Part shown: piece by piece, positions 16,680 to 53,394 of the stretch
How the letters are laid out: the number at the start of each line of letters is the position of its first letter
Position numbering within the stretch: position 1 is the first letter of the stretch
Virus record (IMG/VR): IMGVR_UViG_3300027757_000008
Coordinates: 1 to 53,394 of that record
From: a virus
Lineage: Duplodnaviria; Caudoviricetes
DNA length: 53,394 nt
Direction: 5' to 3' (one strand)
Made by a program: the position numbers and the translations under genes
The notes under the pieces: generated by a model
Databases searched by the model: none
Told to the model about the DNA's origin: nothing
Seen by the model: only the letters and a program-made list of their open reading frames with translations

Positions 16680-17064
16680 CACAAGAGTAAACGTCAATCA
16701 CCTTGCCATCCTCTCCTATCTGTAGAACCTTGGTTCCGGATGGATAGTAGTACCACTGATTGCCACCGTTAAAGATATTACGGTTACCATCGTAGATAAA
16801 TGTGTTTGCTGCTATTGGGTCAGTTGATGAGTAGAACGTTTCTGTTTCAAAACCGGGGCCATCAATACACCCGCTTTCCCCATCGCCCGCTCCTTCTATT
16901 GTCATAGTAAAGGCAGTAAGGGAAGAATACCCATAGAATTCAGAGATGCTGTCGGGGGTTGCAAAGCCAGCAAGCCCGGAGAGGGTCCGCAGGCTATTGC
17001 TTGCAGAACCCAACTCCGTTTTTATTTGGCTGATAGATAACGCTCCGCTACTTGGTAAGGCCAT
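16675..17064 (-). CDS. Putative tail-fibre tip/adhesin accessory protein, 129 aa
   Basis: MALPSSGALSISQI..ELG...SISEFYG N-terminus typical of genes directly after S74-chaperone fibres. Confidence 0.6.
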   Translation of the reverse strand: MALPSSGALSISQIKTELGSASNSLRTLSGLAGFATPDSISEFYGYSSLTAFTMTIEGAGDGESGCIDGPGFETETFYSSTDPIAANTFIYDGNRNIFNGGNQWYYYPSGTKVLQIGEDGKVIDVYSCE

Positions 17065-20000
17065 TGATTATCTCTTTTAGTTCGTTAATCTGCTTCTGCT
17101 GCTCCTTGATAGCCTCAATTAGTACTGCGGTGAGGTTACCGTAGGATACTGAATACATACCCTCATCGTTTTGCTTGACAACCTCTGGGATGACCTCAAG
17201 GATTTCTTGAGCGATGACACCAACCTTTGTTGAGGTGTCTTCGGAGTCTGTCCGGTTGTAGGTTACACCACGAAGTTTAAGGGTCTTGTCAAGAGCGTTC
17301 TCAATGGTCTGTACGTTGGTTTTGATGCGAGCATCAGAGTAAGCGGTTACATCGCCAGAAACTGTTAGATTACCAGCATTGCTCAATATCATCAACTGTG
17401 TAGATGCAGTATTGTTATACCAATCGTATCCACCAGTTCCAAAGTTTCTTTGCCGAGCAATACCAGCATCTTGGATTAAATTCCAATAGTTGGTTCCATC
17501 ACCCATATTTAAGCCACTTGACCAAGCAACGCCAGAGGCTCCCCCATTGTCAATCCAAAGTTTACGGAATTTTGATTGGCTATTTGGGTCGCAATAGTAA
17601 TTGGTATCATCGGAGTCGTAGAAGATTGGTGCCCTCATATCACTATGGGCCTGTATGAATCCATCCACACGAAGGTTTAAGTCACCGATATCTGAAGACA
17701 TACGGAACTCACCTGCGGCTCCATACATACCGATACCGTAGTATCCCCAATCGTTGTATCCAAAGCGTAGTTTACCTCCCCAAGATGAGCCGTTGTAGTA
17801 AGGAACAACAAAGTGGTTCTGAACCTCATCATACGTTATCTCACGGATTCGTGGGGCGTAGAAGTAAGTCTTACTACCAGACACAGAGCCATAACACGTT
17901 CCGCAACGCATATGTATGAACCGGGTGTTTTCGTGCATTACGCCATCTTGGCAGGCTGCTGCTCCCGGAACATTGTTAAGGAACGATTGTGCCGTAGCCC
18001 ATCTGTCAAATTCCGTTGGCCCTTGGTTAGAAAGAGTTCTCCAGTTCTTTAAACGAGCCGTTAACTTTACCCAAGTTCCACCAGTATTTGTCTTATCGCT
18101 GTGAAAGTATGGGTTGGATGTGATGGTGGCCCCATTAGAATCTTGTTCGTGCCAGCCCATATAGACGTGGTCATCTCCAGTGCTTCTAACCCATACGCTA
18201 AATTCGTAGTCTTTTTCTGGGTCTACGTCAACATACTCTGTACCAAACCAGTTGTAACAACCGTTATTCGCCCCTGTTCCGGTTGAAACGTGTGCGTGTA
18301 CAACGGAGCCGTCAATGAATTCTATTTCCTCGTAACTGCCAGAACCATTAACGCCCATATCGGTCATACGGTGGTTTAGCGTTGCGCCTCCAAGGTTTCT
18401 TGGGTACACCGTATAGAGCCTTGATTTACTATTGGGGTCAAGGTAATACGTTGCGTCAGCAGCGTCATAAAGAATTGAGGTCCTCAATGAGGCGGGTGCC
18501 CACACATTACCAGCGGTGTCAATTTTAAATCTTTCAGTTCCCCAGTTATCGTAATTTCCAGACATATCTGGGCGGTAGCCCATATCCTGTACGATTCGGA
18601 AGTTGTCATCAGCGGAACAGTATCCAATGTTCCACCTCGTGTTACTATGCCCGGTGCTAAACTGAATAGACGGTCTATCTGCTCCATTACTTGTTCCTAT
18701 GTGAAATCTCGCTACCTGACCCCAAGAGTGGTCTCCGTGACTGCTTTCAAAACTAAATGGGATATAGTTTGATGTAGCACTCTGAGTGGACCGGAACAAG
18801 GCAACGTGACCGAATGTGCTATTTGCACGGGAAGAAATTACTTCGTGATAATTGTATGTATAGTGATTGGTTACTCCAATCTCTGACATACGAGAGTAAC
18901 CAGCAAAGTCCCCGTAGTAGCCGGTGTCAGCAGAATCATAGAAGATAGGCGCACGGAATGAACCGGGTTCATATGTATAACTTGGATGTTTTTCTAATGG
19001 TGCGTTATCGGTTCCCCCAAACAACCTTGTTATGCCATTCCCAGCGTTATTGTAGCCAATATACATACCATCTGTATATGAGTTATTTCGTATAACTCGC
19101 ATATTGGCATATACATCATTGGTGGCGGTGTCAAAATTATTCCAAACCTCTAAATGATATAGTCGTGATGTAGCACTAGGGTTTAAATAATATCCGTTAT
19201 CATCATAGTCATAAATGATTCCAAGGTATGTTGCTCCGCTATTAATTATGTTTCCGCTTACACGCAAACCACCTTCAACGTGCAGTTTTTCGCTTGGATT
19301 CGTAGTTCCAATACCTACGTTGCCAGCATCGGTAATTCGCATTTTTTCTGAAACAGAACCACCACTTGCCTTGGTGCTAAAAGTCATATGACTATTTCCG
19401 CTTCCGGGCATAATTACTCTTAATGCAGCCCAAGTTTCATTATCTGTACCCGAACTTGTCCAAGTCCACGATATACCCGTTCCTACATCAGTATTTCCTT
19501 CGCTTGTTGTTAGCCTTCGTATCTGAATGGCATCATCGTTTACAGAAGCAAACGTAAGTTGTTTGTTTGGACTATTAGTGCCAATACCTACGCTGCCGCC
19601 AATAGTAACCGTACCTGAAGAATGTGAATTTCCATTCATAAAGAATTCGTGACCATTGCCGTTACTTGGGGCATTGCCAATATAAGTATGACCATAAATC
19701 CAGTTATCATTACCCGCAGTTGTGATTCCATTAGGGAAGTATGCAGAATTAGCGGTACCCCAAGGATTGCCAATACTAACATACCCTTGAGGAGCATTAA
19801 CATCATTTAGTCGGCTTGTACCATTTGGGTTTACATAATAACTGGTATCATCAGAGTCGTAGAAGATAGGGGCTCTTAAACTCCCTTCAAATTGAGAGTA
19901 TGAACGAGTTATTCTTCCTACAATATCATAATTACCAGTTCCTGCTGTTTTAAAGAACCAGCCTGTAGAGTCATTGCTTTCCGCATATTCAACAAATGTT

Positions 20001-22234
20001 GTTTGATGTGCGCCAGTAATGGTTGGGCTGGCTGTTGTACCAGATACAGAGCCTCTAATTACTATAAAGTGGTTATTGTTATCATAACCTTTATATTGTG
20101 TATATCCTGTTGCGCTATAATTACTTGCAACATAATAAGTTCCCCTAACAGAACCTGCAACATTTAATGATATTCCCGTTGATGCAGGGTCTAAATAAAA
20201 CGCAGTATCGGCAGAGTCGTAGAAGATTGGGGCACGCATAGAATCGTTTGCTTGCCACACTCCATTATTTAAAATCCAACCAGAAGTATATGCCGCTCCA
20301 AAGTCTGAGCCACCATTACCTCTTCTAAATACCCAACCTCTTCCTGGAGTATCCATTGTAAAGTAGGTGTTGTACCCATCTCCGCTTCCAGTTGGATTAG
20401 TGAAATACCCACCATTTGATTTAAATCCAATAGCCGAAGTAGTTGTATTGCCCCCATCCCAAAAGAAAATCTGATTGCTTGTGTCGGTTGAACTTTGGTC
20501 TCCACGGATAGCAACACCGTAAACACTACTCATTCCGTTTGGGTCTACGTAGTATGTAGTATTATCAGAGTCGTAGAAGATAGGGGCACGAAAATCAGAA
20601 GTAGCGAAGGCGGTTCCATAAACGTGTAATTTATGTGAAGAAGCTGTTCCTCCTATACTAACATTACCAGCATCAGTGGCTAACTGTGTGGTTCTGTATG
20701 TTCTAAGAGATGGGTTATTGTCATCAAGTCCAGACGCAATCTTCAATGCGTTATACCATCCATCTACCCACTGAACTTGAACGTATAATGGCACACCATT
20801 TCCATCGTCCTGAGAGTACATACGTGCACCCCAGTATTCAAGGTTATTGTAGTAAGAGCCATTTTGGAATCTAATCTCGCCAAGTATTCTAGTACTAACT
20901 AGTCTTGAAGTAGAGTTTGGGTCTACGTAGTAATATGTATCATTAGAGTCATAGAAGATTGGAGACCTCATTGACACATTCGCAAACAAATTGTTGTTTA
21001 CGACAACATCAGTCTGATTTGCTGTACCAACATAACCGCCAATCGTCATCAATAATGTTTCACCAACGTCCCCATTTCCATCATTATTGGCATCTGTTGT
21101 TGGTGAATTATTGTAAAAACGAATGCCTGAATAGGACGCTCCTATTCTAACACCAGTATGATATCCTATAATTAAATCCCTATAATGTGGACCGTTCCAA
21201 CCTCCATCACCAGAGTCTAGACCCATAGAGTAATGATTTGCACCAAAACTATGACCACCACCATATCCAGAAGGGAAGTTAGTTTTTAGGTCACTGAAAA
21301 CTATTTGAGATGTAGTTGCTGAGTTACCAGCACTGCTTGCATAACTTACAGACTGACTACCGATGTTGCTTGTGGTAATAGCAGTAGAGGCGTTTTGTTT
21401 TGCATCAAGAAGTGTAGAGATATTAGCATCTGCCCAAGACATCCAAATGTTTCCATCTGTTGGAATAAAGAATCTGCGACTCCAAGAGTTATCATCAACT
21501 GTTGTTCCATAATAGAAACTAATATTATTATCATTATGAATTAGCCATTTTGAGTCGTGAGTCGTACTTCTTAATGCAATGGATGGATATGTTCCACGAA
21601 TAGTAAGTTGTTCTGCACCATAATTTCCACCGGCCCAATCATATGAAACTTTTGTGTATCCATTTAAATATGCTATACCATTAACGTGAGTAGCACCATA
21701 GGTTCTGATTGGCTGATTGGTGTAGTAGTTAAGGTAAATGTCATTACCATTATAAGAGTCAATATGAAGGTTTCCTCCAAGAGCAATTCGGCCATTACCA
21801 TTGGCTGCCCAAATATTAGTATCTGCTGTAATATCGCCAGCAGACCTAATTCCACCCGTTCCAAAACGAGTTGTGCCACCATTCCAGTTGATGTACATAG
21901 CGGTAGCACTGTCGTTATAGTACGCATTAAACTGGTCACCGCCTGTAATACGGATGTTGTAGCCATTGTCAGCAGTGTATGTCCTAAAGATGGCAGCAGT
22001 GCTATTGAACTGCGCTCTCTTTATACCACTCGTAGAAATGAAGAAGTTGTTATCTCCATTAACGTACATAACAATATTTGCTGCACTACCGCCAAAAGCC
22101 CAGTCCTCAAGTCCTAATCCTCCACGAAATGTTGAACCGTCATAAAAACGAAAGGCACCGCTATTAACTGCTGTGTCGGTATATCCAGACACATATAAAT
22201 TACCCGATACGTTAGTGCTTAAAAGATTAGCCAT
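17048..22234 (-). CDS. Modular tail fibre with C-terminal intramolecular chaperone (peptidase S74), 1728 aa
   Basis: C-terminal SDARIKTNV...LRGVTY...GVIAQE...PEVV...Y..L..VLIEAIKEQ; eight RAPIFYDS-like repeats; VGIGT.SP repeats; possible CBM-like insert (YEFSVWVRS). Confidence 0.9.
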   Translation of the reverse strand: MANLLSTNVSGNLYVSGYTDTAVNSGAFRFYDGSTFRGGLGLEDWAFGGSAANIVMYVNGDNNFFISTSGIKRAQFNSTAAIFRTYTADNGYNIRITGGDQFNAYYNDSATAMYINWNGGTTRFGTGGIRSAGDITADTNIWAANGNGRIALGGNLHIDSYNGNDIYLNYYTNQPIRTYGATHVNGIAYLNGYTKVSYDWAGGNYGAEQLTIRGTYPSIALRSTTHDSKWLIHNDNNISFYYGTTVDDNSWSRRFFIPTDGNIWMSWADANISTLLDAKQNASTAITTSNIGSQSVSYASSAGNSATTSQIVFSDLKTNFPSGYGGGHSFGANHYSMGLDSGDGGWNGPHYRDLIIGYHTGVRIGASYSGIRFYNNSPTTDANNDGNGDVGETLLMTIGGYVGTANQTDVVVNNNLFANVSMRSPIFYDSNDTYYYVDPNSTSRLVSTRILGEIRFQNGSYYNNLEYWGARMYSQDDGNGVPLYVQVQWVDGWYNALKIASGLDDNNPSLRTYRTTQLATDAGNVSIGGTASSHKLHVYGTAFATSDFRAPIFYDSDNTTYYVDPNGMSSVYGVAIRGDQSSTDTSNQIFFWDGGNTTTSAIGFKSNGGYFTNPTGSGDGYNTYFTMDTPGRGWVFRRGNGGSDFGAAYTSGWILNNGVWQANDSMRAPIFYDSADTAFYLDPASTGISLNVAGSVRGTYYVASNYSATGYTQYKGYDNNNHFIVIRGSVSGTTASPTITGAHQTTFVEYAESNDSTGWFFKTAGTGNYDIVGRITRSYSQFEGSLRAPIFYDSDDTSYYVNPNGTSRLNDVNAPQGYVSIGNPWGTANSAYFPNGITTAGNDNWIYGHTYIGNAPSNGNGHEFFMNGNSHSSGTVTIGGSVGIGTNSPNKQLTFASVNDDAIQIRRLTTSEGNTDVGTGISWTWTSSGTDNETWAALRVIMPGSGNSHMTFSTKASGGSVSEKMRITDAGNVGIGTTNPSEKLHVEGGLRVSGNIINSGATYLGIIYDYDDNGYYLNPSATSRLYHLEVWNNFDTATNDVYANMRVIRNNSYTDGMYIGYNNAGNGITRLFGGTDNAPLEKHPSYTYEPGSFRAPIFYDSADTGYYGDFAGYSRMSEIGVTNHYTYNYHEVISSRANSTFGHVALFRSTQSATSNYIPFSFESSHGDHSWGQVARFHIGTSNGADRPSIQFSTGHSNTRWNIGYCSADDNFRIVQDMGYRPDMSGNYDNWGTERFKIDTAGNVWAPASLRTSILYDAADATYYLDPNSKSRLYTVYPRNLGGATLNHRMTDMGVNGSGSYEEIEFIDGSVVHAHVSTGTGANNGCYNWFGTEYVDVDPEKDYEFSVWVRSTGDDHVYMGWHEQDSNGATITSNPYFHSDKTNTGGTWVKLTARLKNWRTLSNQGPTEFDRWATAQSFLNNVPGAAACQDGVMHENTRFIHMRCGTCYGSVSGSKTYFYAPRIREITYDEVQNHFVVPYYNGSSWGGKLRFGYNDWGYYGIGMYGAAGEFRMSSDIGDLNLRVDGFIQAHSDMRAPIFYDSDDTNYYCDPNSQSKFRKLWIDNGGASGVAWSSGLNMGDGTNYWNLIQDAGIARQRNFGTGGYDWYNNTASTQLMILSNAGNLTVSGDVTAYSDARIKTNVQTIENALDKTLKLRGVTYNRTDSEDTSTKVGVIAQEILEVIPEVVKQNDEGMYSVSYGNLTAVLIEAIKEQQKQINELKEIINGLTK

Positions 22235-35108: not shown

Positions 35109-35430
35109 CGTCTTCAGTTGAAATACCAAACTCGCCAAGGAGACCATCTAAAGAGTCGGCTCTTTCTGAGCGTCGTATCGTTTGTCGGTAGGTGTCGATA
35201 CCAACTTGAAGCAGTCGGTCCAGTTCCTCCTCGTTTTCGATGAAGAAGTCCGTCATAGCCTTAAAGTTGTAGTTGCCCTCGTCCGTCTCGCTCTCGATAT
35301 AGATGCCAGCAATAGAGATGTAGGCGAAGTCGTTTCCAAATCCGTAGTGGTAAGCGATATCCTGAATCTCTTGTAGTTTCTCCCGAATCTCCATAAAGAA
35401 CTCGAGATGCTCCCCGGCGTTGTTGTCCAT
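35098..35430 (-). CDS. Acidic hypothetical protein, 110 aa
   Basis: First gene of the late operon, downstream of the promoter at 35453-35460. Confidence 0.55.
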   Translation of the reverse strand: MDNNAGEHLEFFMEIREKLQEIQDIAYHYGFGNDFAYISIAGIYIESETDEGNYNFKAMTDFFIENEEELDRLLQVGIDTYRQTIRRSERADSLDGLLGEFGISTEDDEQ

Positions 35431-35480: not shown

Positions 35481-35503
35481 CAATTGTATCTAAATCGAAT
35501 ATA

Positions 35504-35953
35504 ATGAATAAAGAGAAACTGCAACAGCGAAAGCAGTTCAGGGACATCATCTATAAGGCGGACCCACCGCCTGCTGACTACCTGTGGAATTTTTCAGTTG
35601 TCATAGACTATTGTATGAAGCGCTATGACCTGCGCGAATCCCAAATCAAACTTATGCTGTTTGTCTACTCTATGGAGTCCTTCCTGTTTAAGCCTATGGC
35701 GCAGAAGATGAACCGCAGCCCGATTAAACTCTGGGAGAAGGTAGCCCGAGACCTAGTAGACAGAGACTTCATAAAAGAAGAACTGTACTCAAAGGGGTAC
35801 AAGAAGGAGTTCTATGAAACCTACGAGCCACACACCACCACCCCCGGAGTGATGTCCAGACGATGGGCACTCTCCACAAAAGGAAGGCAGTTTGTTAGTA
35901 AGTTTTATCAGTACCTAGAGGGCTCAAGGGCAATGAACCCTGACGTGCTATAG
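35504..35953 (+). CDS. Winged-helix (MarR-like) DNA-binding protein
   Basis: YDL.ESQIKLMLF.Y...L...DFI...WALSTKGRQFV winged-helix pattern; ATG 35504 follows the plus-strand promoter. Confidence 0.6.
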   Translation: MNKEKLQQRKQFRDIIYKADPPPADYLWNFSVVIDYCMKRYDLRESQIKLMLFVYSMESFLFKPMAQKMNRSPIKLWEKVARDLVDRDFIKEELYSKGYKKEFYETYEPHTTTPGVMSRRWALSTKGRQFVSKFYQYLEGSRAMNPDVL

Positions 35954-36206
35954 CCCCGCCGCGAACTGGGAACGCTAATCAATACTGCGTATGTGATTAA
36001 CACCACAACAACAACTGCAACATCTGTTCAAAACCATTACCGTTTTGTTTATTACTTTTGTCGTAACTTCGCAAAGTGGCAACGGAGTAACAACATAAAG
36101 AAGTCAACAGCGTCTTCAGTCACTCCCCCTTCTGAGTGAGTGTCACCCACGACACGACCACTCGCCACACAGTCAAAATCACCCCATACTATACCCCGTT
36201 CACAAC

Positions 36207-36228
36207 AGGCCCCGAGAGGGGCCTTTTT
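36207..36228 (+). terminator. Intrinsic terminator
   Basis: AGGCCCC-GAGA-GGGGCCT followed by TTTT. Confidence 0.75.
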
Positions 36229-36229
36229 C

Positions 36230-36925
36230 GTGTTCCTAAAACTCCCGATATACACCATTAAATAGGAAATCTAAGTCTCAACCCCACCGGGCCCAATTGC
36301 CTCCAGGAAACCCAAAAAAAAGTACCAAAAAAGGGGGATATAAACGTAAATCCTGTAGAGTTATACGTGCCTGCGGGATTCTACAGCGGCGCCAACGTTC
36401 ACGCGCGCAACCCGAAACGGATTTCCAAACCCCACCCCCTGACCCCCAGGCGTTTGCCCAAAATAGTTTGGCGATTTTCATTTGATGTTTAAACACGAAC
36501 TACCCCCCCGGTCGATTCAATCGGTACCCTACCCCCCTTCCGAAACGATTGTCTGCCTTCCCCCTAAAGTTTTGAAATGAGTGCAGTCATTCACACATAC
36601 GGAACTATCCCCCACGCCATCTATCCTCCCCTGTCCTGTGTCCTGTATCCTCCCCCTGTCTACCTGATTGGGGTAAGTCCGCCCCCGGTGCAGTGGTGAT
36701 ATATGTACCCATTTGCGGCCGTGTGTGCATAACCCGGGCCTAACTTCTGCCCCTGGATGCTCTCCAGGAACGCTCTCCAGTTCTCCAGGAACGCAGTTTG
36801 CCCCCGATTTGGGTGGTGCTGACCTGGAGCGGGTGAAATTTCTGAAAATTTTTTTCCTTCGGAAACCCTTTGGTGGCGCGGGTTTGGTGGGGGCGGCGAA
36901 AAAAAAGTGAAAAAAGTTTGGGGGA
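36230..36925. other. Non-coding, homopolymer- and repeat-rich region; candidate genome end/packaging or origin region
   Basis: No credible ORF; C-runs then G/A-runs; direct repeats TCTCCAGGAACGC x2 and TATCCTCCCC.TGTC x2; lies between the late arm and the early promoter. Confidence 0.45.
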
Positions 36926-36928
36926 AAG

Positions 36929-36959
36929 TTTGGTGGGTAAGAAATCCTGACTACATTTG
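36929..36959 (+). promoter_or_regulatory. Strong early host-RNAP promoter (-33 TTTG, 19-nt spacer, -7 TACATTTG) with upstream A-tracts
   Basis: Exact match to the Bacteroidota sigma-A consensus. Confidence 0.85.
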
Positions 36960-36961
36960 TA

Positions 36962-37535
36962 TCAGAGTCAAGGACGACGCCGGCGAGACCGGGACATAAG
37001 AAGGCCGACTGACTCCTCCCCGAGGCCGCAAGGCTGACGCCGCAAGGTGCCGGAGAGACCCGACGAGAGAGCGGGTGAGCGGGGGGCCGACCACAGCCCC
37101 ATACCGCCAAGCCATAAGCCCGATGTAGCAGTCAAATGGTTCCTCTCTCCATCGTCTTACACATAAAGGTGCGCGACGACTGACCCCGAGCGCGGCGGTG
37201 ATTGAGTCCTTCATCACCGACCGCGGCGTTCTGCCGCTCGGACAATCAGTCAACGCCGTTGATAGTAAGCCGGGGGGAGCGCCTTGGCGCATTGGAACCA
37301 AGTTCATATCCCCGGACGAACAGGGAAACGCCCGGTGATAGACGATGCTTTAGGGGCGACGAAAATCCCTCTGCGACCTTCTCATAACCAAGGATATGAT
37401 GAACACGATATTAGGACAGGCCTAACGCAGACCACATATAGTACTCACATTCCCCTACTGACCTCCTCTTCCAAAGGTGGCGCTCCGACTCTCACTACGA
37501 GATGGACGGACATCGGTTCGCGACCGGCGTCACCA
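36962..37535 (+). ncRNA. Large structured leader/ncRNA (~570 nt), family not recognised
   Basis: GC-rich; starts at the early promoter; many nested helices with GCAA/GAGA loops; long-range CATCGTCT/AGACGATG pairing; 3' tRNA-like domain. Confidence 0.7.
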
Positions 37536-37573
37536 CTACTTAAATTCACTCACTCACTAACCCCCCCCGAGTT

Positions 37574-37780
37574 ATGCGTTTCATTCCCGCTAAAGAATCT
37601 GATTTGTTCAAGTTGTCTTGCACTACCCGCAAATCTTCAAGCCGTACCACATCCGGCGCCAAGTACATTGCTAACGACCGCGGCCTTGTATCCAAGGCTA
37701 AAATTCAGTTTGTTAAAGATGCGATTGAAACTGAAGAGAATATCTTCGTGAATTCACGCCTTGTTTATGTCTGTAAATAA
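37574..37780 (+). CDS. Early hypothetical protein, 68 aa
   Basis: First ORF after the leader RNA. Confidence 0.55.
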   Translation: MRFIPAKESDLFKLSCTTRKSSSRTTSGAKYIANDRGLVSKAKIQFVKDAIETEENIFVNSRLVYVCK

Positions 37781-37787
37781 TCTACCT

Positions 37788-37859
37788 ATGAAAAAAGACC
37801 AATTGCTTGTTCTTGCGATTATCGCTATTGTTTCTCTCGTTGTATCGGCTTGTGCCTAA
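37788..37859 (+). CDS. 23-aa lipoprotein-signal-like peptide (MKKDQLLVLAIIAIVSLVVSACA)
   Basis: Read manually; basic n-region, hydrophobic h-region, lipobox VSAC; fills the intergenic gap. Confidence 0.5.
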   Translation: MKKDQLLVLAIIAIVSLVVSACA

Positions 37860-37871
37860 ACCCCCTGTGAT

Positions 37872-38066
37872 ATGAAAACATTCTATGTTTATTCCGTTGA
37901 CGCCAAAGGTGACATCGTTTCCGTCAAATACGGAATCAAAGCGAAATCTCGTCTTGATGCTATTGAGCAATCAAATGTAGAGAAAGTATATTGGGAAGGT
38001 GCCCGCCCATACGGCGTATCGTACATCGGAAGCAAGTTTAAGATGTACGCAAAACTGCAAGGTTAA
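37872..38066 (+). CDS. Early hypothetical protein, 64 aa
   Basis: Its stop codon forms part of stem I of hammerhead 1. Confidence 0.6.
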   Translation: MKTFYVYSVDAKGDIVSVKYGIKAKSRLDAIEQSNVEKVYWEGARPYGVSYIGSKFKMYAKLQG

Positions 38067-38111
38067 CTGATGATGGGTTTAGTACCCGAAACGCCGTGAG
38101 GCGTCTTAACC
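38061..38111 (+). ncRNA. Type I hammerhead ribozyme, copy 1 (predicted cleavage after C38105)
   Basis: GGTTAA-CTGATGA-T-GGGT(TTAGT)ACCC-GAAA-CGCC(GTGA)GGCG-TC-TTAACC. Confidence 0.85.
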
Positions 38112-38153
38112 AATATGAACCGATGCTTCCGCATCACAATACCCCCCTTTGCT

Positions 38154-38387
38154 ATGACTTTCCTTTGCAAAACTGAAGTAGAATTCTCTACCGCGCTCCG
38201 CGCCTTGGCTCTTGACTTTTTGTTCAAAAAGCGTGATGCTGATGAAACTAAATCTTTAGTTCACGCCTACCTTGGGCAGAATCGCCGCCACTACCCTAAA
38301 GATGCGGCCTTTTGGACTGACCACTTCCGCTCATTGTTTACGAACGATGGTGGTTCACTTACCCGGGCCGCGGCTACGGGTAACTAA
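38154..38387 (+). CDS. Hypothetical protein enclosed by the two hammerheads (77 aa from ATG 38154; 90 aa from 38115)
   Basis: Open frame; the downstream ATG is preferred because 38117-38140 is a repeated leader hairpin. Confidence 0.6.
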   Translation: MTFLCKTEVEFSTALRALALDFLFKKRDADETKSLVHAYLGQNRRHYPKDAAFWTDHFRSLFTNDGGSLTRAAATGN

Positions 38388-38389
38388 CA

Positions 38390-38442
38390 GGTTAACTGAT
38401 GATGGCTTGAATAGCCGAAACGCCCTACGGGGCGTCTTAACC
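38390..38442 (+). ncRNA. Type I hammerhead ribozyme, copy 2 (predicted cleavage after C38436)
   Basis: GGTTAA-CTGATGA-T-GGCT(TGAAT)AGCC-GAAA-CGCCC(TACG)GGGCG-TC-TTAACC; compensatory change in stem II relative to copy 1. Confidence 0.85.
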
Positions 38443-38458
38443 AATAAATCTACAAAAG

Positions 38459-38821
38459 ATGAGCCGTTATGCTATTGACCGAAACACTGACTTCGTTAAG
38501 TTGGTTGTTAAGTTTGAGTTTGATTACAATATCACTCCTGTTACCTTCGTATGCCTACAACACGAAGGTCGCCTTCCCGAACTATCCCGTGTAGGTTCAC
38601 GCCGGGGGCTACACGACAACAAAGATTTTGATAGCGACTACAAGAAGTTCGCAGAGGCTTTGTTCAGTAACTACTTCGCCGCACAACGCGAGGATGTTGA
38701 GATTAAAATCAGCGCCGAGCGTTTCGTGTGGAGCGAAAAGCACAATTGGGTGATTGGTCAACCAATGCCCGAAGTTAATTCTCTTGATAAAATTGTTGAC
38801 ATCCTAACATCTCGCGCCTAA
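38459..38821 (+). CDS. Early hypothetical protein, 120 aa
   Basis: ORF track; A-rich initiation region. Confidence 0.6.
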   Translation: MSRYAIDRNTDFVKLVVKFEFDYNITPVTFVCLQHEGRLPELSRVGSRRGLHDNKDFDSDYKKFAEALFSNYFAAQREDVEIKISAERFVWSEKHNWVIGQPMPEVNSLDKIVDILTSRA

Positions 38822-39027
38822 TGGACTTTATTCTTATTCACGCCATCCCCGCCGCACTTGCCGGCCTGTTAGTATTCGGTGAGGCTTTCATCTCAAAGCC
38901 CACCAAGAAAGTAGCACCACGGGTGCATTACATCACCAAGCCTTGCCGCTACGGCGACGAAGTTTGTTCAGTAACCATCAAGTACATCGATGGTATTCAA
39001 GTTGGTTCACGATTAAATCTTAAATAA
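38821..39027 (+). CDS. Small membrane-anchored protein, 68 aa
   Basis: Hydrophobic N-terminus; stop/start overlap. Confidence 0.55.
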   Translation: MDFILIHAIPAALAGLLVFGEAFISKPTKKVAPRVHYITKPCRYGDEVCSVTIKYIDGIQVGSRLNLK

Positions 39028-39054
39028 GAAAACAATTAACAAATCACTATCATT

Positions 39055-39225
39055 ATGGCTTACTTACTTTTGATTATTATGTTCTTCGGAATCATCACGA
39101 TGATTACCGGGGGCGACCTTATGGCTAACGCCAAGACAACATTCCGCAAACTTGAGGGCGGCTTTGTTATGGGCGCGGGTGTTCTTGGAATCCTCGCCTC
39201 AATCTTTTACCTTGTAATTCACTAA
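39055..39225 (+). CDS. Small two-TM membrane protein, 56 aa (MAYLLLIIMFFGII...)
   Basis: Read manually; preceded by the repeated AAATCACTATCATT-ATG leader. Confidence 0.6.
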   Translation: MAYLLLIIMFFGIITMITGGDLMANAKTTFRKLEGGFVMGAGVLGILASIFYLVIH

Positions 39226-39236
39226 ACTGAAATAAA

Positions 39237-39452
39237 ATGGGATACTACATTGTTGAAAACGAACACGCCACTAACTACAGGAACCTTGTTCTTGACGGCC
39301 TTGACCACGCCGAGGCAGTAGCCGAAGCCCTTGAAGAGGCAACGGGTTACCCTTGGTATGTAACTCCGCTTGTGTTCGCCAATGAACTTGGCGGCATTGA
39401 CAAAATAATTAACGAAGACATTGACCCAAAATGGACAAAGAGAAAGAAATGA
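39237..39452 (+). CDS. Early hypothetical protein, 71 aa
   Basis: ORF track; operon packing. Confidence 0.55.
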   Translation: MGYYIVENEHATNYRNLVLDGLDHAEAVAEALEEATGYPWYVTPLVFANELGGIDKIINEDIDPKWTKRKK

Positions 39453-39685
39453 ACAAGTATATAATTGTTGTGAGCCGATACCAATCGGTATCGCTTATAG
39501 TTGAGGCCGAGGATATTGACAAAGCCGAATGGATAGCCCACCAAGCCGCGGAGGTTGATGGGTTCTTTAGTGATGACAATGACATCATTGAAGTTATTGA
39601 CGCCTTGGATGAAGACCAAGAGCCGACCCTTATTAAGGAAGAGCCTCACTTGCGCCAATCTGATGGCGGATGGGACTTTCAATAA
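39449..39685 (+). CDS. Acidic DpnD/PcfM-like small protein
   Basis: KY...V.......VEAED..KA...A pattern; ATGA overlap start at 39449. Confidence 0.5.
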   Translation: MNKYIIVVSRYQSVSLIVEAEDIDKAEWIAHQAAEVDGFFSDDNDIIEVIDALDEDQEPTLIKEEPHLRQSDGGWDFQ

Positions 39686-39692
39686 CTAAACC

Positions 39693-39733
39693 GGGTGTAT
39701 GGTATGTGTGAGGGTTCGACTCCCTCACGCCCA
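39693..39733 (+). ncRNA. tRNA minihelix-like element (acceptor stem plus T arm only)
   Basis: GGGTGT...GAGGG-TTCGACT-CCCTC-ACGCCC-A; intergenic. Confidence 0.65.
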
Positions 39734-39784
39734 CTAAATAAATAAAATACGAACCGATGCTACGGCATCACAATTCTCTGCGCT

Positions 39785-40348
39785 ATGCAAAACCGAATGA
39801 CCCAATTGCTCAACGACAAGTACACCGCTGAACAACGCGCCGCCGTACTGATTGACTACTTCGCCAACAACGGCGATACGCTCCCTTGCTCCGGCTTTGG
39901 AAATCCTTTGAACTTTAAGAGCGGGATTGTTGTTGTCCCCTCTTCGCGGATAGCCGCTCCTCTGCGCTACTTTTGGGAAGGCTTGGTATCTAACTTCTTT
40001 GTCGAGTTCGGGGTTAAACTTGACTATGTTGATAAGTTCTACGAAGAGGCCGTAGAGGAACTGAAGAAGAACAACCCCGAGGGCGCGAGCATTTGTTGGG
40101 AGGATGTCATCCTTCAGTATGTCCTCTTGGGGCACCCGATTATCATTAACGATAACGACCAAGTAATTGGCGCGGCGACCCTGTTCCACCGGGACATCAT
40201 TGGTAACTTCGTTAAGGCAGTAGCCTCTAACGATAACACGGAACTCGCCTTGCGTTGGCTACAGGAGTTCCAAGTATGTCAGCACGACGCTATCGTGACC
40301 GACGGCTTCTTGCAGTTTTGTGTATATGGTGACCTTATCTTCGGGTAA
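39785..40348 (+). CDS. Conserved phage hypothetical protein, 187 aa
   Basis: CWEDV...DA...D.FLQ..VYGDLIFG C-terminal motif. Confidence 0.6.
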   Translation: MQNRMTQLLNDKYTAEQRAAVLIDYFANNGDTLPCSGFGNPLNFKSGIVVVPSSRIAAPLRYFWEGLVSNFFVEFGVKLDYVDKFYEEAVEELKKNNPEGASICWEDVILQYVLLGHPIIINDNDQVIGAATLFHRDIIGNFVKAVASNDNTELALRWLQEFQVCQHDAIVTDGFLQFCVYGDLIFG

Positions 40349-40356
40349 GGTTCACC
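40328..40356 (+). terminator. UUCG-capped hairpin over a stop codon (terminator or processing stem)
   Basis: GGTGA-CCTTATC-TTCG-GGTAAGG-T-TCACC followed by TTAATTT. Confidence 0.5.
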
Positions 40357-40377
40357 TTAATTTAAATCACTATTATT

Positions 40378-40539
40378 ATGACTAAATTAGATTTCTTTTA
40401 CCTCTGCGGCGAGGCGTCAGTCGACCCAAAGATTGCACTTGAGAACGAATCAGTTCGCGCTATCCTAAAAAAGGACAAGGATGTTAATAGTGTTGACAAC
40501 CAAGTTGAAATGTTAGAAATACTTGAAACCGAATTTTAA
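40378..40539 (+). CDS. Small protein, 53 aa (MTKLDFFYLCGEASVDPKIALENE...ETEF)
   Basis: Read manually; preceded by the repeated AAATCACTATTATT-ATG leader. Confidence 0.6.
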   Translation: MTKLDFFYLCGEASVDPKIALENESVRAILKKDKDVNSVDNQVEMLEILETEF

Positions 40540-40541
40540 TT

Positions 40542-40826
40542 ATGAAAGACAAGAAGTTATTTTGGACGGCAGTAAACCTCCTCAATGACCGGGGCGGTTG
40601 GAGGGCAATCCTTCAGTATTGCGACGAACTATACGCCGACGGCGTAAAAGACCTTGAAGTTACCGAGTGTACGAACTGCGGTAGCGAATACCACTACCAC
40701 AATGTTTGTGTAATGTGCGAAACATACAACACTCCCGCTGACCGCCGTAGGCACGAACAATGGGATAACCGACACAAAGCCTCCCGCCCGGAAGGCATTG
40801 ATAACCGAGGCCGAATTAACCTTTAA
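40542..40826 (+). CDS. Small zinc-finger protein, 94 aa
   Basis: CxxC-x9-CxxC (CTNC...CVMC). Confidence 0.55.
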   Translation: MKDKKLFWTAVNLLNDRGGWRAILQYCDELYADGVKDLEVTECTNCGSEYHYHNVCVMCETYNTPADRRRHEQWDNRHKASRPEGIDNRGRINL

Positions 40827-40838
40827 CCTTAATTCATT

Positions 40839-41447
40839 ATGACTGAATTGAAAGAGAACTTTGAAAAGTATGCAGTCGTTATGACTGACAACGATGCTTA
40901 CCCTTTGGTTGGTGAGTACGGATGGATGTCCCTCGGTTGGGAGGGCACACAGGACATTGAAGACATCCTTGACCAAGTCAAGGACTTTGCAATGGCTAAA
41001 CTTAACACCCTGTTAGTCCAAGGTGGCTACCACCGGATTGGTTCACTCTCCAAGGAGAGAAATTCATCCACTTACATTCGTGGCGGTATGGGGGGCCGCA
41101 TCATCCAAGTTAACCTTGAAACTACGCCCGGCACTTATGGCCTAATCCAAGACCGCTACAGCGAGGCTATGGGGCAATGGCGCAACGATATGCGTAACTA
41201 CTTCAATAGCGACTGCGAGTATCAGCGCGTACGAGGCAAGAAGCCATTCGAGAGTGTAGAAACACTATACGGGTTCTTCCAATGGGACACTAATCCCGGG
41301 AAGGGTCTTCACTATGTCGTGATGAACGCGAGGGCTAGCGTTGTAGTTGGCCTTGACCGCTCACAAATCCGTCACATAGTTGAACTATACGGAAATATGG
41401 ATATGGCTGACTTCGAGGAGGCCTTGATTAATTACGAATCTAATTAA
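40839..41447 (+). CDS. Hypothetical protein, 202 aa
   Basis: ORF track; no motif recognised. Confidence 0.6.
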   Translation: MTELKENFEKYAVVMTDNDAYPLVGEYGWMSLGWEGTQDIEDILDQVKDFAMAKLNTLLVQGGYHRIGSLSKERNSSTYIRGGMGGRIIQVNLETTPGTYGLIQDRYSEAMGQWRNDMRNYFNSDCEYQRVRGKKPFESVETLYGFFQWDTNPGKGLHYVVMNARASVVVGLDRSQIRHIVELYGNMDMADFEEALINYESN

Positions 41448-41459
41448 TTCACTATCATT

Positions 41460-41660
41460 ATGAAACCACTTAAAGAAGTAGTCGTCTACGAGATGGACGA
41501 AGTTGCAAAGATGATTGAGAGCCACCGACACGGAATGAATGTCTTGGTGAAAATCCAACAAGAGGTTAGCGAACTGCACGACCTTGAAATTATTGATGAG
41601 GCGACCTTTGAGCGCCTAAATACTAAAATTAAAGATGTCTTTAACTTAATTGTTCAGTAA
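41460..41660 (+). CDS. Hypothetical protein, 66 aa
   Basis: Preceded by AATTCACTATCATT-ATG leader. Confidence 0.6.
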   Translation: MKPLKEVVVYEMDEVAKMIESHRHGMNVLVKIQQEVSELHDLEIIDEATFERLNTKIKDVFNLIVQ

Positions 41661-48984: not shown

Positions 48985-49231
48985 AGTTAGATGCCGAAAT
49001 TGCGCCAAGTGCGCCGCAGTAAAAGAGCAAACCGACGCCCTCCTCAAAGAGGCCGCGGCCCTCTTCGCCAACGAAGGCAAAGACAGCACTCAAGAGGAGT
49101 TAAACGAGGCCTATAGAAAGGAACACGAGTTGATGCTAAAGATTGCAGAACTCGACCCCGAACTTGGAGCAACTTTATTACAATACAGCAATGAAACTGA
49201 CACTGAAAGACCTGCAGAGATTTCTGAGTGA
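48974..49231 (+). CDS. Hypothetical protein, 85 aa
   Basis: ORF track; D.LL...A.L....G.DST pattern. Confidence 0.5.
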   Translation: MPNRVRCRNCAKCAAVKEQTDALLKEAAALFANEGKDSTQEELNEAYRKEHELMLKIAELDPELGATLLQYSNETDTERPAEISE

Positions 49232-49859
49232 TGACACGTTCTATCACTTTGTAGCCCGTAAGCACGGATGCTTCATCAAAGATGAAGATGACCTTTCGGA
49301 GGTTCGTTACAAGGCTATTGCCGGAGTGTTAAGCCGCTATAATGCTGAGTTTGAGTATGAAGACGAGAAGCACCTATACTCATCTGTTGAGATGACCGTT
49401 TGGAACGCAATACGTACGATGCTCAAGAGCAAGACTCTTCAAAAAAACAACCTACCAATCGACTCAGAATGCACCCTTTTAAGAGGTGATGGTGACGAGC
49501 AGTGGTCTTTGTATGAAGTTAATGCAATCTCCGAAAGCAAAGAGTATGACAACACTCTTCAGTGGCTTATGAGTTCCGCGGAGAAAAAGTTGGACACAAT
49601 ACAAATGTTTGTCCTAAACAAAACCGTAGAGGGATTTACCATTCCAGAGATTGCAGAAGAGTTAGAATGCTCTGCAGAGAACGTTCGTCAGCGCCTGAGA
49701 GTAATTATTAGACAATTAAAAAACATTTCCGATGCTGAAAAAGGAGAGATTCAATATCCTGTGCGAAGAATACGCGCGGCTGTCAAGCGTGAATCCGTTA
49801 GAGCGCACAAGGCGGCACCTGAACGTCGTAGCGCGGCAAGTGATTTCCTTAATTCTTAA
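49191..49859 (+). CDS. Sigma-70/ECF-like factor or region-4 HTH regulator
   Basis: C-terminal LD..Q.FVL.....GFTIPEIAEELECSAENVRQRL region-4 HTH; N-terminal EDD...V..KAI region-2-like segment. Confidence 0.65.
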   Translation: MKLTLKDLQRFLSDDTFYHFVARKHGCFIKDEDDLSEVRYKAIAGVLSRYNAEFEYEDEKHLYSSVEMTVWNAIRTMLKSKTLQKNNLPIDSECTLLRGDGDEQWSLYEVNAISESKEYDNTLQWLMSSAEKKLDTIQMFVLNKTVEGFTIPEIAEELECSAENVRQRLRVIIRQLKNISDAEKGEIQYPVRRIRAAVKRESVRAHKAAPERRSAASDFLNS

Positions 49860-53268: not shown

Positions 53269-53365
53269 AGTCAGGTGGCGGATTGGGTAGACGCTAAAAC
53301 GGTAATAGTCACGTAGATTACCATAGTTTAAAACGTACGAACAGGTTCGATTCCTGTCCTGACTA
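53269..53365 (+). tRNA. Atypical tRNA-like gene (97 nt; anticodon not assignable)
   Basis: Acceptor AGTCAGG/CCTGACT+A; D arm TGGCGGATTGGGTAGACGC; T arm ACAGG-TTCGATT-CCTGT; anticodon arm replaced by an extended stem with GGTAAT/ATTACC and a 10-nt loop. Confidence 0.7.
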
Positions 53366-53394
53366 CAAGCCTTTAACACCAAAGAGAAATGAAA

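Follow-up and report, generated by a model that had tools for sequence, protein, structure and literature searches.

A hairpin repeated in two early-gene leaders of a marine phage, behind a hammerhead ribozyme and a tRNA-like minihelix: a candidate insulator of translation start sites

Results

Two early genes share a leader hairpin

The DNA analyzed here, called the window throughout, is the whole 53,394-nucleotide (nt) IMG/VR virus record IMGVR_UViG_3300027757_000008 (Duplodnaviria; Caudoviricetes), with a completeness estimate of 88%. The minus strand carries its structural genes, up to about position 35,430, and a long run of small early genes on the plus strand begins at about 35,500. Two of the early genes, encoding proteins of 77 and 187 amino acids (aa) and referred to below as gene 1 and gene 2, carry the same hairpin motif in their leaders, GAACC-GATGC-N4-GCATC-ACAAT (GAACCGATGC-N4-GCATCACAAT). 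It stands behind a predicted type I hammerhead ribozyme at gene 1 and behind a tRNA-like minihelix at gene 2 (Table 1). The two copies follow one direction of transcription, 1.6 kb apart, and bracket six small genes.

The motif is found at exactly two sites, 38117-38140 (copy 1, loop TTCC) and 39751-39774 (copy 2, loop TACG). A pattern search of the whole window with up to three mismatches returned these two sites alone; the shuffle expectation is 0.01, and none of 100 shuffles held two or more matches. Copy 1 starts 11 nt (38106-38116) past the predicted hammerhead cut after C38105, and copy 2 starts 17 nt (39734-39750) past the minihelix discriminator A39733, which places the stems themselves 16 and 22 nt past the cut and the discriminator, respectively. 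GCTATG follows each copy, at 38151-38156 (10 nt past copy 1) and 39782-39787 (7 nt past copy 2). A first-pass annotation of this DNA had described the motif with the same coordinates, loops, and distances, and had asked for a motif search of the full genome; both the sequence and the search agree with its description.

The repeat spans 29 nt (AATAYGAACC...ACAAT; family D20, 90% identity). All 20 stem and flank positions of the motif are identical between the copies, and two of the four loop positions differ. Beyond the 29 nt the likeness becomes patchy: interrupted by indels of 3 and 11 nt, it extends across GCTATG and a TGCAAAACYGAA block whose reading frame differs between the two genes, and the spacer up to GCTATG, which carries the 3-nt indel, is about half diverged. 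None of the other plus-strand gene leaders of the window has this or a similar hairpin.

Each 24-mer folds into a 5-base-pair (bp) stem closed by a tetraloop (-6.3 and -7.7 kcal/mol), and only 1 of 200 and 0 of 200 shuffles, respectively, folded as well. The hairpin is present in the minimum free energy (MFE) and centroid structures of the 70-nt contexts and in the MFE structures of the 141-nt contexts, and in the longer-context folds hammerhead 1 beside it is also folded correctly. In both copies the start codon can be enclosed by a second, weak helix; by eye, the GAACC flank could also pair over 4-5 bp with GGTT(C), either in stem I or in the T arm. Across four metagenome runs, neither hairpin showed a variant letter. 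A search of the whole window with Rfam, including the RAGATH motifs of Rfam 15, gave no match at gathering score, and at E values up to 10 in 35500-41500 no match fell on either hairpin.

On the plus strand the stem is followed by ACAAT... rather than by the T-tract of an intrinsic terminator. Read on the minus strand, each copy gives a 6-pair hairpin with a T-containing tail, and a terminator scan lists both copies there. That the pair serves as antisense terminators is nevertheless hardly credible: the region holds six terminator-like sites where chance predicts 5.4 ± 2.1, the T-tracts are poor, and no minus-strand genes or promoters face the region.

Table 1. Features of the two leaders and their genes, in window coordinates
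Feature	Position	Strand	Details
Type I hammerhead 1	38061-38111	+	Stem I GGTTAA/TTAACC; core CTGATGA from 38067; predicted cut after C38105
Leader motif, copy 1	38112-38140	+	Stem 38122-38126/38131-38135; loop TTCC 38127-38130; flanks GAACC and ACAAT
C-rich spacer and GCTATG, copy 1	38141-38156	+	ATG 38154, 18 nt past the hairpin
77-aa early gene (gene 1)	38154-38387	+	Three-helix bundle (predicted); start 38154 favored over in-frame ATG 38115
Type I hammerhead 2	38390-38442	+	Predicted cut after 38436; no hairpin downstream
tRNA-like minihelix	39693-39733	+	Acceptor-like stem GGGTGT/ACGCCC; linker ATGGTATGTGT; T arm GAGGG-TTCGACT-CCCTC; discriminator A39733
Leader motif, copy 2	39746-39774	+	Stem 39756-39760/39765-39769; loop TACG 39761-39764
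Spacer and GCTATG, copy 2	39775-39787	+	ATG 39785, 15 nt past the hairpin
187-aa early gene (gene 2)	39785-40348	+	Second in-frame ATG at 39797

The motif lies upstream of the start codons

Placement of the motif in an untranslated leader depends on where gene 1 begins, and the start at 38154 assigned in the first-pass annotation is supported on three counts. Five of the seven database matches to the 77-aa protein begin at MTFLCKT or MRTFLCKT; the other two are the window's own call and a homologue, P0002, with an unrelated extension that shares the residues PFAM alone. A start at 38115 would leave a leader of 9 nt, the shortest of 110 hammerhead leaders among the matches listed (described below), and in the two next-shortest, those of L078 and L069, another in-frame ATG lies at the usual distance. 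Finally, copy 2 reads ACG at the position that corresponds to ATG 38115 in copy 1, and a stop codon lies two codons further upstream, so the motif is untranslated in copy 2. Translation thus appears to start at 38154, and some use of 38115 may occur as well. The 77-aa protein is predicted to form three helices (predicted local distance difference test score, 84.6), and its fold has no match in the PDB at E values up to 0.001.

Out-of-frame AUGs lie within the 5' stem arms, at 38123 and 39757. They open short upstream open reading frames (ORFs) that overlap the main genes, 38123-38176 (17 codons) and 39757-39831 (24 codons), both in the same frame relative to the main ATG. We also considered that the C-run of copy 1 might cause a +1 frameshift; this was dropped, as copy 2 lacks such a site and the ATG is retained in the homologues.

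A coding explanation would have ATG 38115 open a 90-aa protein, or would have the short ORFs control translation of the main genes. The stem AUGs, 17 and 23 nt past the processing sites, are at the canonical leader length and behind A-rich leaders; the peptides share their frame and an N terminus reading ML-x-HHN; and the motif and the main ATG are in the same phase, 37 and 34 nt apart. Even so, we regard this explanation as very unlikely. Copy 2 lacks an in-frame start, the homologues start at the main ATG, the stem AUGs are base paired within a hairpin of -6 to -8 kcal/mol, the peptide likeness follows from the nucleotide identity, and the analogous stems of another phage, G001 (below), contain no AUG.

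Hammerheads and minihelices occupy the same positions

Stem I of hammerhead 1 contains the stop codon (38064-38066) of the upstream 64-aa gene. Hammerhead 2 is followed by an ordinary A-rich leader of 22 nt and ATG 38459, and no further hammerhead was found in the window. Rfam calls neither at gathering score: hammerhead 2 gives a weak RAGATH-1-hammerhead match (20.1 bits, E = 8.5) and hammerhead 1 gives none. The hammerhead pattern, TTAAC-CTGATGA ... GAAAC ... GTC-TTAACC, occurs in more than 118 IMG/VR stretches, itself a lower bound. In the 115 distinct copies among the matches listed, stem II has at least three contiguous pairs in 107 and stem III at least four pairs in 111, and these stems are built from 28 and 37 different sequences, respectively. 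As far as sequence can tell, the TTAAC/GTTAA-type phage hammerhead is a real, conserved ribozyme family. Rfam misses the family (L003-L120) at gathering score, and its members score 20-35 bits against the RAGATH-1-hammerhead model, with a gathering score of 56.3.

The matches listed include 121 distinct hammerhead leaders, 110 of which have the ATG of an ORF of at least 35 codons within 120 nt; all leader statistics given here refer to this set. The ATG lies 18-24 nt past the cut in 83 of the 110 (median, 22). Leaders are 54% A, the median MFE of their first 48 nt is -0.9 kcal/mol, and an extra ATG is found in only 4 of 110, compared with 12.2 ± 2.8 in shuffles. The hammerhead-1 leader of the window is among the three most structured of the 121. 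Ordinary leaders being unstructured and narrow in length, and the exceptions being structured, the common feature is therefore a structure or an RNA end some 15-24 nt before the ATG.

Just 5' of hammerhead 2, a hairpin TACCCG...CGGGTA (38360-38389) overlaps the invariant C terminus of the 77-aa family, TRAAATGN; it corresponds to the 5' stem of the RAGATH-1-hammerhead model, and RNA and protein constraints may coincide there.

The minihelix before copy 2 is not called by ARAGORN. It is conserved in the relative carrying the gene 2 homologue P0011, where one change turns a U.G into a C-G pair. Minihelices of this kind, with a T loop but not tRNAs, recur before genes in hammerhead-bearing phage loci; they have an acceptor-like stem, a short linker often containing ATGG, and a TTCGANT loop. 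On the minus strand of L078, one leader word (AAACATGGAGTACAAAATGCATAA; reverse-complement indices 6978 and 7486) is used at two genes, behind a hammerhead in one case and behind a minihelix and hairpin in the other. A co-occurring relative, which is more abundant, has a hammerhead with three differences from hammerhead 1 directly before the start of an L119-type homologue of gene 2. The link drawn in the first-pass annotation between hammerhead and minihelix, as parts of one system, thus holds at the level of the class: minihelices take the same slots as hammerheads, the L078 leader occurs behind both, and the gene 2 family is also found behind a hammerhead. By an eye count uncorrected for relatedness, hairpins stand behind minihelices in about 4-6 of about 19 lineages and behind hammerheads in 4 of about 100. 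Such an excess would fit protection of the monophosphate ends left by RNase Z, and is only a hint of it.

Leader hairpins recur in other phage operons

The clearest parallel is G001 (the record of L025), in which ten same-strand leader hairpins precede ten consecutive early genes on the minus strand, over about 5.3 kb (~77,246-82,491). The consensus is AGNN-AGGYGCA-NNCT followed by ATAACAGGC, a 4-bp stem with a conserved 7-nt loop; none was found on the other strand, and a reversed control gave none. A type I hammerhead cut lies 9 nt before seven of the ten, and the remaining three have no hammerhead. Their stems (AGTG/CACT, AGTC/GACT, and AGAC/GTCT) are paired in 40 of 40 cells, with double-sided changes at two of the four pairs and a covariation score reached by none of 500 shuffles, while the loop and the 3' flank ATAACAGGC are near constant. 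The spacer from hairpin to ATG is 20 nt in eight copies and 21 nt in two. Two other phages, L132 (spacer, 21 nt) and L135 (20 nt), have the same hairpin type before a homologous gene. The array corresponds to no Rfam family.

Single cases were seen elsewhere. After hammerheads, L058 (20-nt spacer) and L093 (7 or 19 nt, depending on the ATG) each have one hairpin, in a single copy in its record; after minihelices, a small hairpin follows at a distance of 2-3 nt in L019 (17-nt spacer), L069, and L078. Taken with the window, where the 3' edge of the same-strand hairpin lies 18 and 15 nt before the ATG, within the range of about 15-21 nt, these spacers therefore define a recurring unit: processing element, optional hairpin, about 15-21 unstructured nt, and ATG. 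G001 and the window both have a same-strand hairpin between processing element and ATG, repeated within an early operon and at a short distance from the start. They share no sequence likeness, however, and G001 differs in its 4-bp stem, 7-nt loop, ten copies, position 9 nt after the cut, and spacer of 20-21 nt. Compensatory stem change is seen in G001, whereas the window stems are identical to each other and the leader of the relative is visible by translation alone. A full-text literature search turned up no account, in the main texts it covered, of leader hairpins that follow natural phage hammerheads.

Copy 2 is conserved in a relative

In the relatives carrying P0002, P0003/P0017, P0011, and P0013, leaders are visible solely as the translation upstream of a protein, in which synonymous-type changes do not appear. 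P0011 (and P0013, on another contig) are homologues of the 187-aa protein with 79% identity by BLASTP; as called, they carry 30 extra residues at the N terminus, which come from translation of the relative's minihelix and leader. Compared with the translation upstream of gene 2 in the window, 25 of the 30 residues are equal, including all of the last 13, the part that spans the hairpin block and spacer. Judged by this translation, copy 2 is conserved beyond this genome, and copy 1 may be a more recent acquisition.

No further IMG/VR stretch has the exact motif, and neither IMG/VR, searched through protein, nor genome contigs yielded relatives of the 187-aa protein or the 77-aa family. One metagenome contig, L121, matched the exact motif; it has no hammerhead or minihelix, and the match falls at what is apparently the end of a coding stretch. 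As 20 fixed bases are expected, roughly, to give a few matches in metagenome contigs, we took it as chance. A blastn search of 37000-41000 against a phage GenBank collection gave no match.

Host and promoter context

None of the 35 plus-strand starts of the window has a Shine-Dalgarno (SD)-like motif, and the host type appears to lack SD sequences. Boxes of the type TAnnTTTG, which we take to be the promoter consensus, precede the minus-strand gene blocks, and the region is present in 20 marine metagenome runs and in no listed RNA run; together, these observations make a marine Bacteroidota host likely. The phage encodes a weak sigma-70 region 4/ECF-like protein (49143-49856) as well as Erf-like and exonuclease recombination proteins. 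The small early proteins neighboring the two leaders have no Pfam or PHROGs match.

With such a sigma-like protein at hand, the motif could be thought to act as DNA, either as a palindromic operator (GATGC-N4-GCATC) for a dimeric protein or as a promoter of the sigma-like protein, with GAACC as a -35-like element and transcripts beginning just before GCTATG. Conserved half-sites around a variable center have the look of an operator, and GCTATG, conserved and at a nearly constant distance, could mark a start region. We think a DNA site improbable, all the same. The two perfect palindromes are the only ones in the window (four at one mismatch, with 1.4 expected), and none lies at promoter regions; the flanks are asymmetric, and the spacer of a promoter should not be its most conserved part. 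No TAnnTTTG-type box, our presumed consensus, lies nearby, a scan for sigma-70-type promoters was unconvincing at the motifs, and no terminator separates the upstream genes from either copy. The analogous G001 hairpins, moreover, covary as nucleic acid pairs.

Other features of the genome

Several further observations concern the surroundings of the two leaders. Between the first early gene and the small-gene cluster, about 1.6 kb (35960-37570) has no convincing ORF, a G+C content above that of its surroundings, an excess of C, and no Rfam match; it includes TAnnTTTG-like boxes at 36053 and 36952 and, at 36207-36224, a clean hairpin of terminator type that has a T-run. This stretch may be a long noncoding RNA or a long leader. 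At the end of gene 2, a strong hairpin (about -16 kcal/mol; 40328-40356) covers the stop codon, without a T-tract, and is followed by a leader, AAATCACTATTATTATG, that occurs also at 39041. A second tRNA-like element, at 53270-53366, has a T arm ACAGG-TTCGATT-CCTGT and an acceptor-like stem AGTCAGG/CCTGACT; it comes after a 3-codon mini-ORF, is not called by ARAGORN, and is surrounded by three occurrences (52982, 53237, and 53367) of a leader of about 27 nt (AAACCTTTAACACCAA..GAAATG). On the minus strand, eight copies of a repeat of about 60 nt, irregularly spaced at 273-849 nt (17580-20972), sit within a 1,728-aa ORF (17048-22234) and probably represent a repeated domain of a tail or fiber protein.

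Discussion

A hairpin as the wall of a start site

The motif is, on the comparison with other phages, one instance of a leader architecture that recurs in phage operons punctuated by hammerheads and minihelices, and it is probably a functional element that acts in RNA. As to how it acts, we propose, tentatively and with rather less than even confidence, that it is the cis-acting hairpin of a reusable 5'-leader module and serves as a wall, or insulator, of the start site. The early genes would probably be made as one long transcript, punctuated by the self-cleaving hammerhead and by the minihelix, a putative substrate of RNase P and/or RNase Z. Between each processing site and start codon, a stable hairpin would then form whose 3' edge lies at the spacing given above, and which would act as a structural 5' wall, keeping the unstructured landing stretch of an SD-less message clear of pairing with upstream RNA. 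It would at the same time bury the out-of-frame AUG of its own 5' arm, otherwise the first accessible AUG, and it may slow decay from the 5' side too. In Flavobacterium johnsoniae, according to passages of one study, the region from -20 to +20 is unstructured, initiation depends on this, and AUG is depleted from -21 to -1 (PMC6847099). A 5' end, a minihelix, or a hairpin stands near that -20 border in the phage leaders, and the window hairpin is therefore read as the 5' wall of the landing stretch.

A bolder version of this proposal concerns phages of SD-less hosts in general. The start would be chosen by its distance from a structural boundary some 15-24 nt upstream, the first free AUG being used, and a processed 5' end, a minihelix, and a hairpin would be interchangeable rulers; the window hairpin would then reset the ruler and hide a decoy AUG. 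We consider this general rule speculative and rather doubtful.

Several findings weigh against the insulator proposal. The motif has two copies and no covariation within it, so pairing in the RNA is not proven for the window motif itself. The 10 nonpalindromic flank positions are conserved as strongly as the stem, which a purely structural role does not explain. The spacers before both ATGs are pyrimidine rich with G at -3, whereas the leaders of other genes are A rich. In the P0011 relative, the first 40 residues of the 187-aa protein are also nearly unchanged (36 of 40 identical), so the agreement over the hairpin block could reflect a locally conserved or recently exchanged patch. In P0002, a relative 85% identical to gene 1, the upstream translation reads LYRLVPNPLNPFAM where the window has MNRCFRITIPPFAM, which means that copy 1 has not been retained there in this form. 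Lastly, the distant homologue of gene 2 in L119 and that in the co-occurring relative stand behind plain leaders with no hairpin. The search for the motif in relatives, proposed in the first-pass annotation, has a divided outcome: the block of copy 2 is kept in the P0011/P0013 translation, and copy 1 is not visible in the P0002 translation, with no exact motif elsewhere in IMG/VR.

Some of these findings can be turned into an argument that the hairpin itself has no function, and that the repeat is a relic or linker left by recombination: a leader copied between genes, or 29-nt junctions of a cassette exchange. The direct repeats bracket a 1.6-kb block of six small genes, the likeness reaches into the first codons in different frames, the phage has recombination proteins of its own, copy 1 is not visible in P0002, and the co-occurring relative has a near-identical hammerhead directly before its gene 2 homologue. 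Such a relic is, in our estimate, unlikely. A perfect block beside a half-diverged, indel-bearing spacer points to an old copy whose blocks were selectively retained rather than to a fresh duplication, and copy 2 is retained in a diverged relative. A perfect 5-bp stem with differences concentrated in the loop has, by our own estimate, a probability of about 0.03 if three differences fall at random in 29 nt.

The conserved flanks bear on another possibility, raised in the first-pass annotation as a protein-binding site, that the hairpin and its single-stranded flanks form an RNA operator, bound by a phage or host protein that regulates translation or decay of both messages together, as a translational repressor or activator. 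Phage RNA hairpins bound by a phage protein include the MS2 and Q-beta replicase operators, the T4 RegA sites, and lambda boxB. The window motif resembles these operator and nut-type hairpins in being short, in early messages, in few copies, and with near-identical stems. It differs in that the window has no boxA-like partner and no candidate for a cognate protein, and in that both copies lie in one direction, 1.6 kb apart. An operator would account for an identical stem with asymmetric flanks (GAACC/ACAAT) next to a diverged spacer, and a constant loop and flank on a covarying stem, as in G001, is the usual signature of a hairpin that is specifically recognized. The weak second helix over the start codon and spacers that look like poor start sites would suit either an activator or a repressor. 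On the other side, no candidate RNA-binding protein was found among the neighboring early proteins with Pfam or PHROGs, the 77-aa three-helix bundle has no informative structural match, and the loop, usually key for recognition, differs at two of four positions. We hold an operator to be unlikely on balance, yet worth keeping in view beside the insulator.

Comparison with known systems

Small 5' untranslated region (UTR) hairpins of the ompA type stabilize messages, and their protection needs a stem within a few nt of the 5' end. The window element likewise is a small stable hairpin in a 5' UTR; given the predicted ends, however, its stems are preceded by 16 and 22 unpaired nt. 5'-Hydroxyl ends are themselves poor substrates for 5'-monophosphate-dependent nucleases. 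The role of 5'-end protector suggested in the first-pass annotation consequently finds weak support: it fits poorly because of this unpaired lead of 16-22 nt and because a hammerhead leaves a 5'-hydroxyl end, as stated in a passage on these ribozymes (PMC6765202), and most hammerhead leaders are hairpin free.

What hammerhead ribozymes do in phages and bacteria is described as an open question in the same source (PMC6765202). In the relevant passages of Perreault et al. 2011 (PMC3088659), clustered hammerheads are described around single genes or short blocks, with the proposal that a long phage transcript is processed to mRNAs of gene length; a hammerhead of the HF2 halovirus lies 13 nt before a start codon. 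The window resembles these phage and prophage loci in having several hammerheads that flank genes within one transcript, and differs from them in its downstream leader hairpin and minihelix partner, neither of which figures in those passages. Plant mitochondrial t-elements are the nearest parallel to the minihelix: as described in part of Forner et al. 2007 (PMC1920247), they are tRNA-like structures in mRNAs that are cut by RNase P and/or RNase Z and define mRNA ends, and stem-loops are also named as processing elements there. A tRNA-like structure as a cut signal within an mRNA is what we propose for the window minihelix. The t-elements belong to an organelle rather than a phage, and the part of that study drawn on here has no repeated, sequence-conserved hairpin at a fixed distance from a start codon.

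The closest functional analogue, by layout, appears to be RiboJ, a synthetic insulator made of the sTRSV hammerhead and a 23-nt hairpin that is retained on the mRNA and is thought, in the passages concerned, to stabilize it and to expose the ribosome site (PMC6206723). Copy 1 has this architecture: its predicted hammerhead, in which the core is intact and all three stems are present, would cut after 38105, ahead of a hairpin at 38122-38135. In copy 2 the minihelix takes the place of the ribozyme. Both RiboJ and, as predicted, copy 1 place a self-cleaving hammerhead before a retained 5' hairpin upstream of the ribosome site, and removal of upstream context, mRNA stability, and an exposed start have been proposed as the result. 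RiboJ, as far as those passages go, is man-made and serves an SD site, while the window element is natural, lies 16-22 nt from the predicted end, stands behind a minihelix as well, and belongs to an SD-less genome. By this analogy, the motif may be regarded as a 5'-UTR hairpin that is a natural counterpart of the ribozyme-plus-hairpin insulator, with a hairpin sequence seen in no Rfam family. Narrow, AUG-poor leaders, minihelices in the same slots, and hairpins at fixed distances suggest defined translation-start cassettes on a long early transcript. If this is true, phages arrived by evolution at the ribozyme-plus-hairpin insulator that synthetic biology designed on its own, and their modules would be ready-made expression parts for Bacteroidota, where SD-based tools fail.

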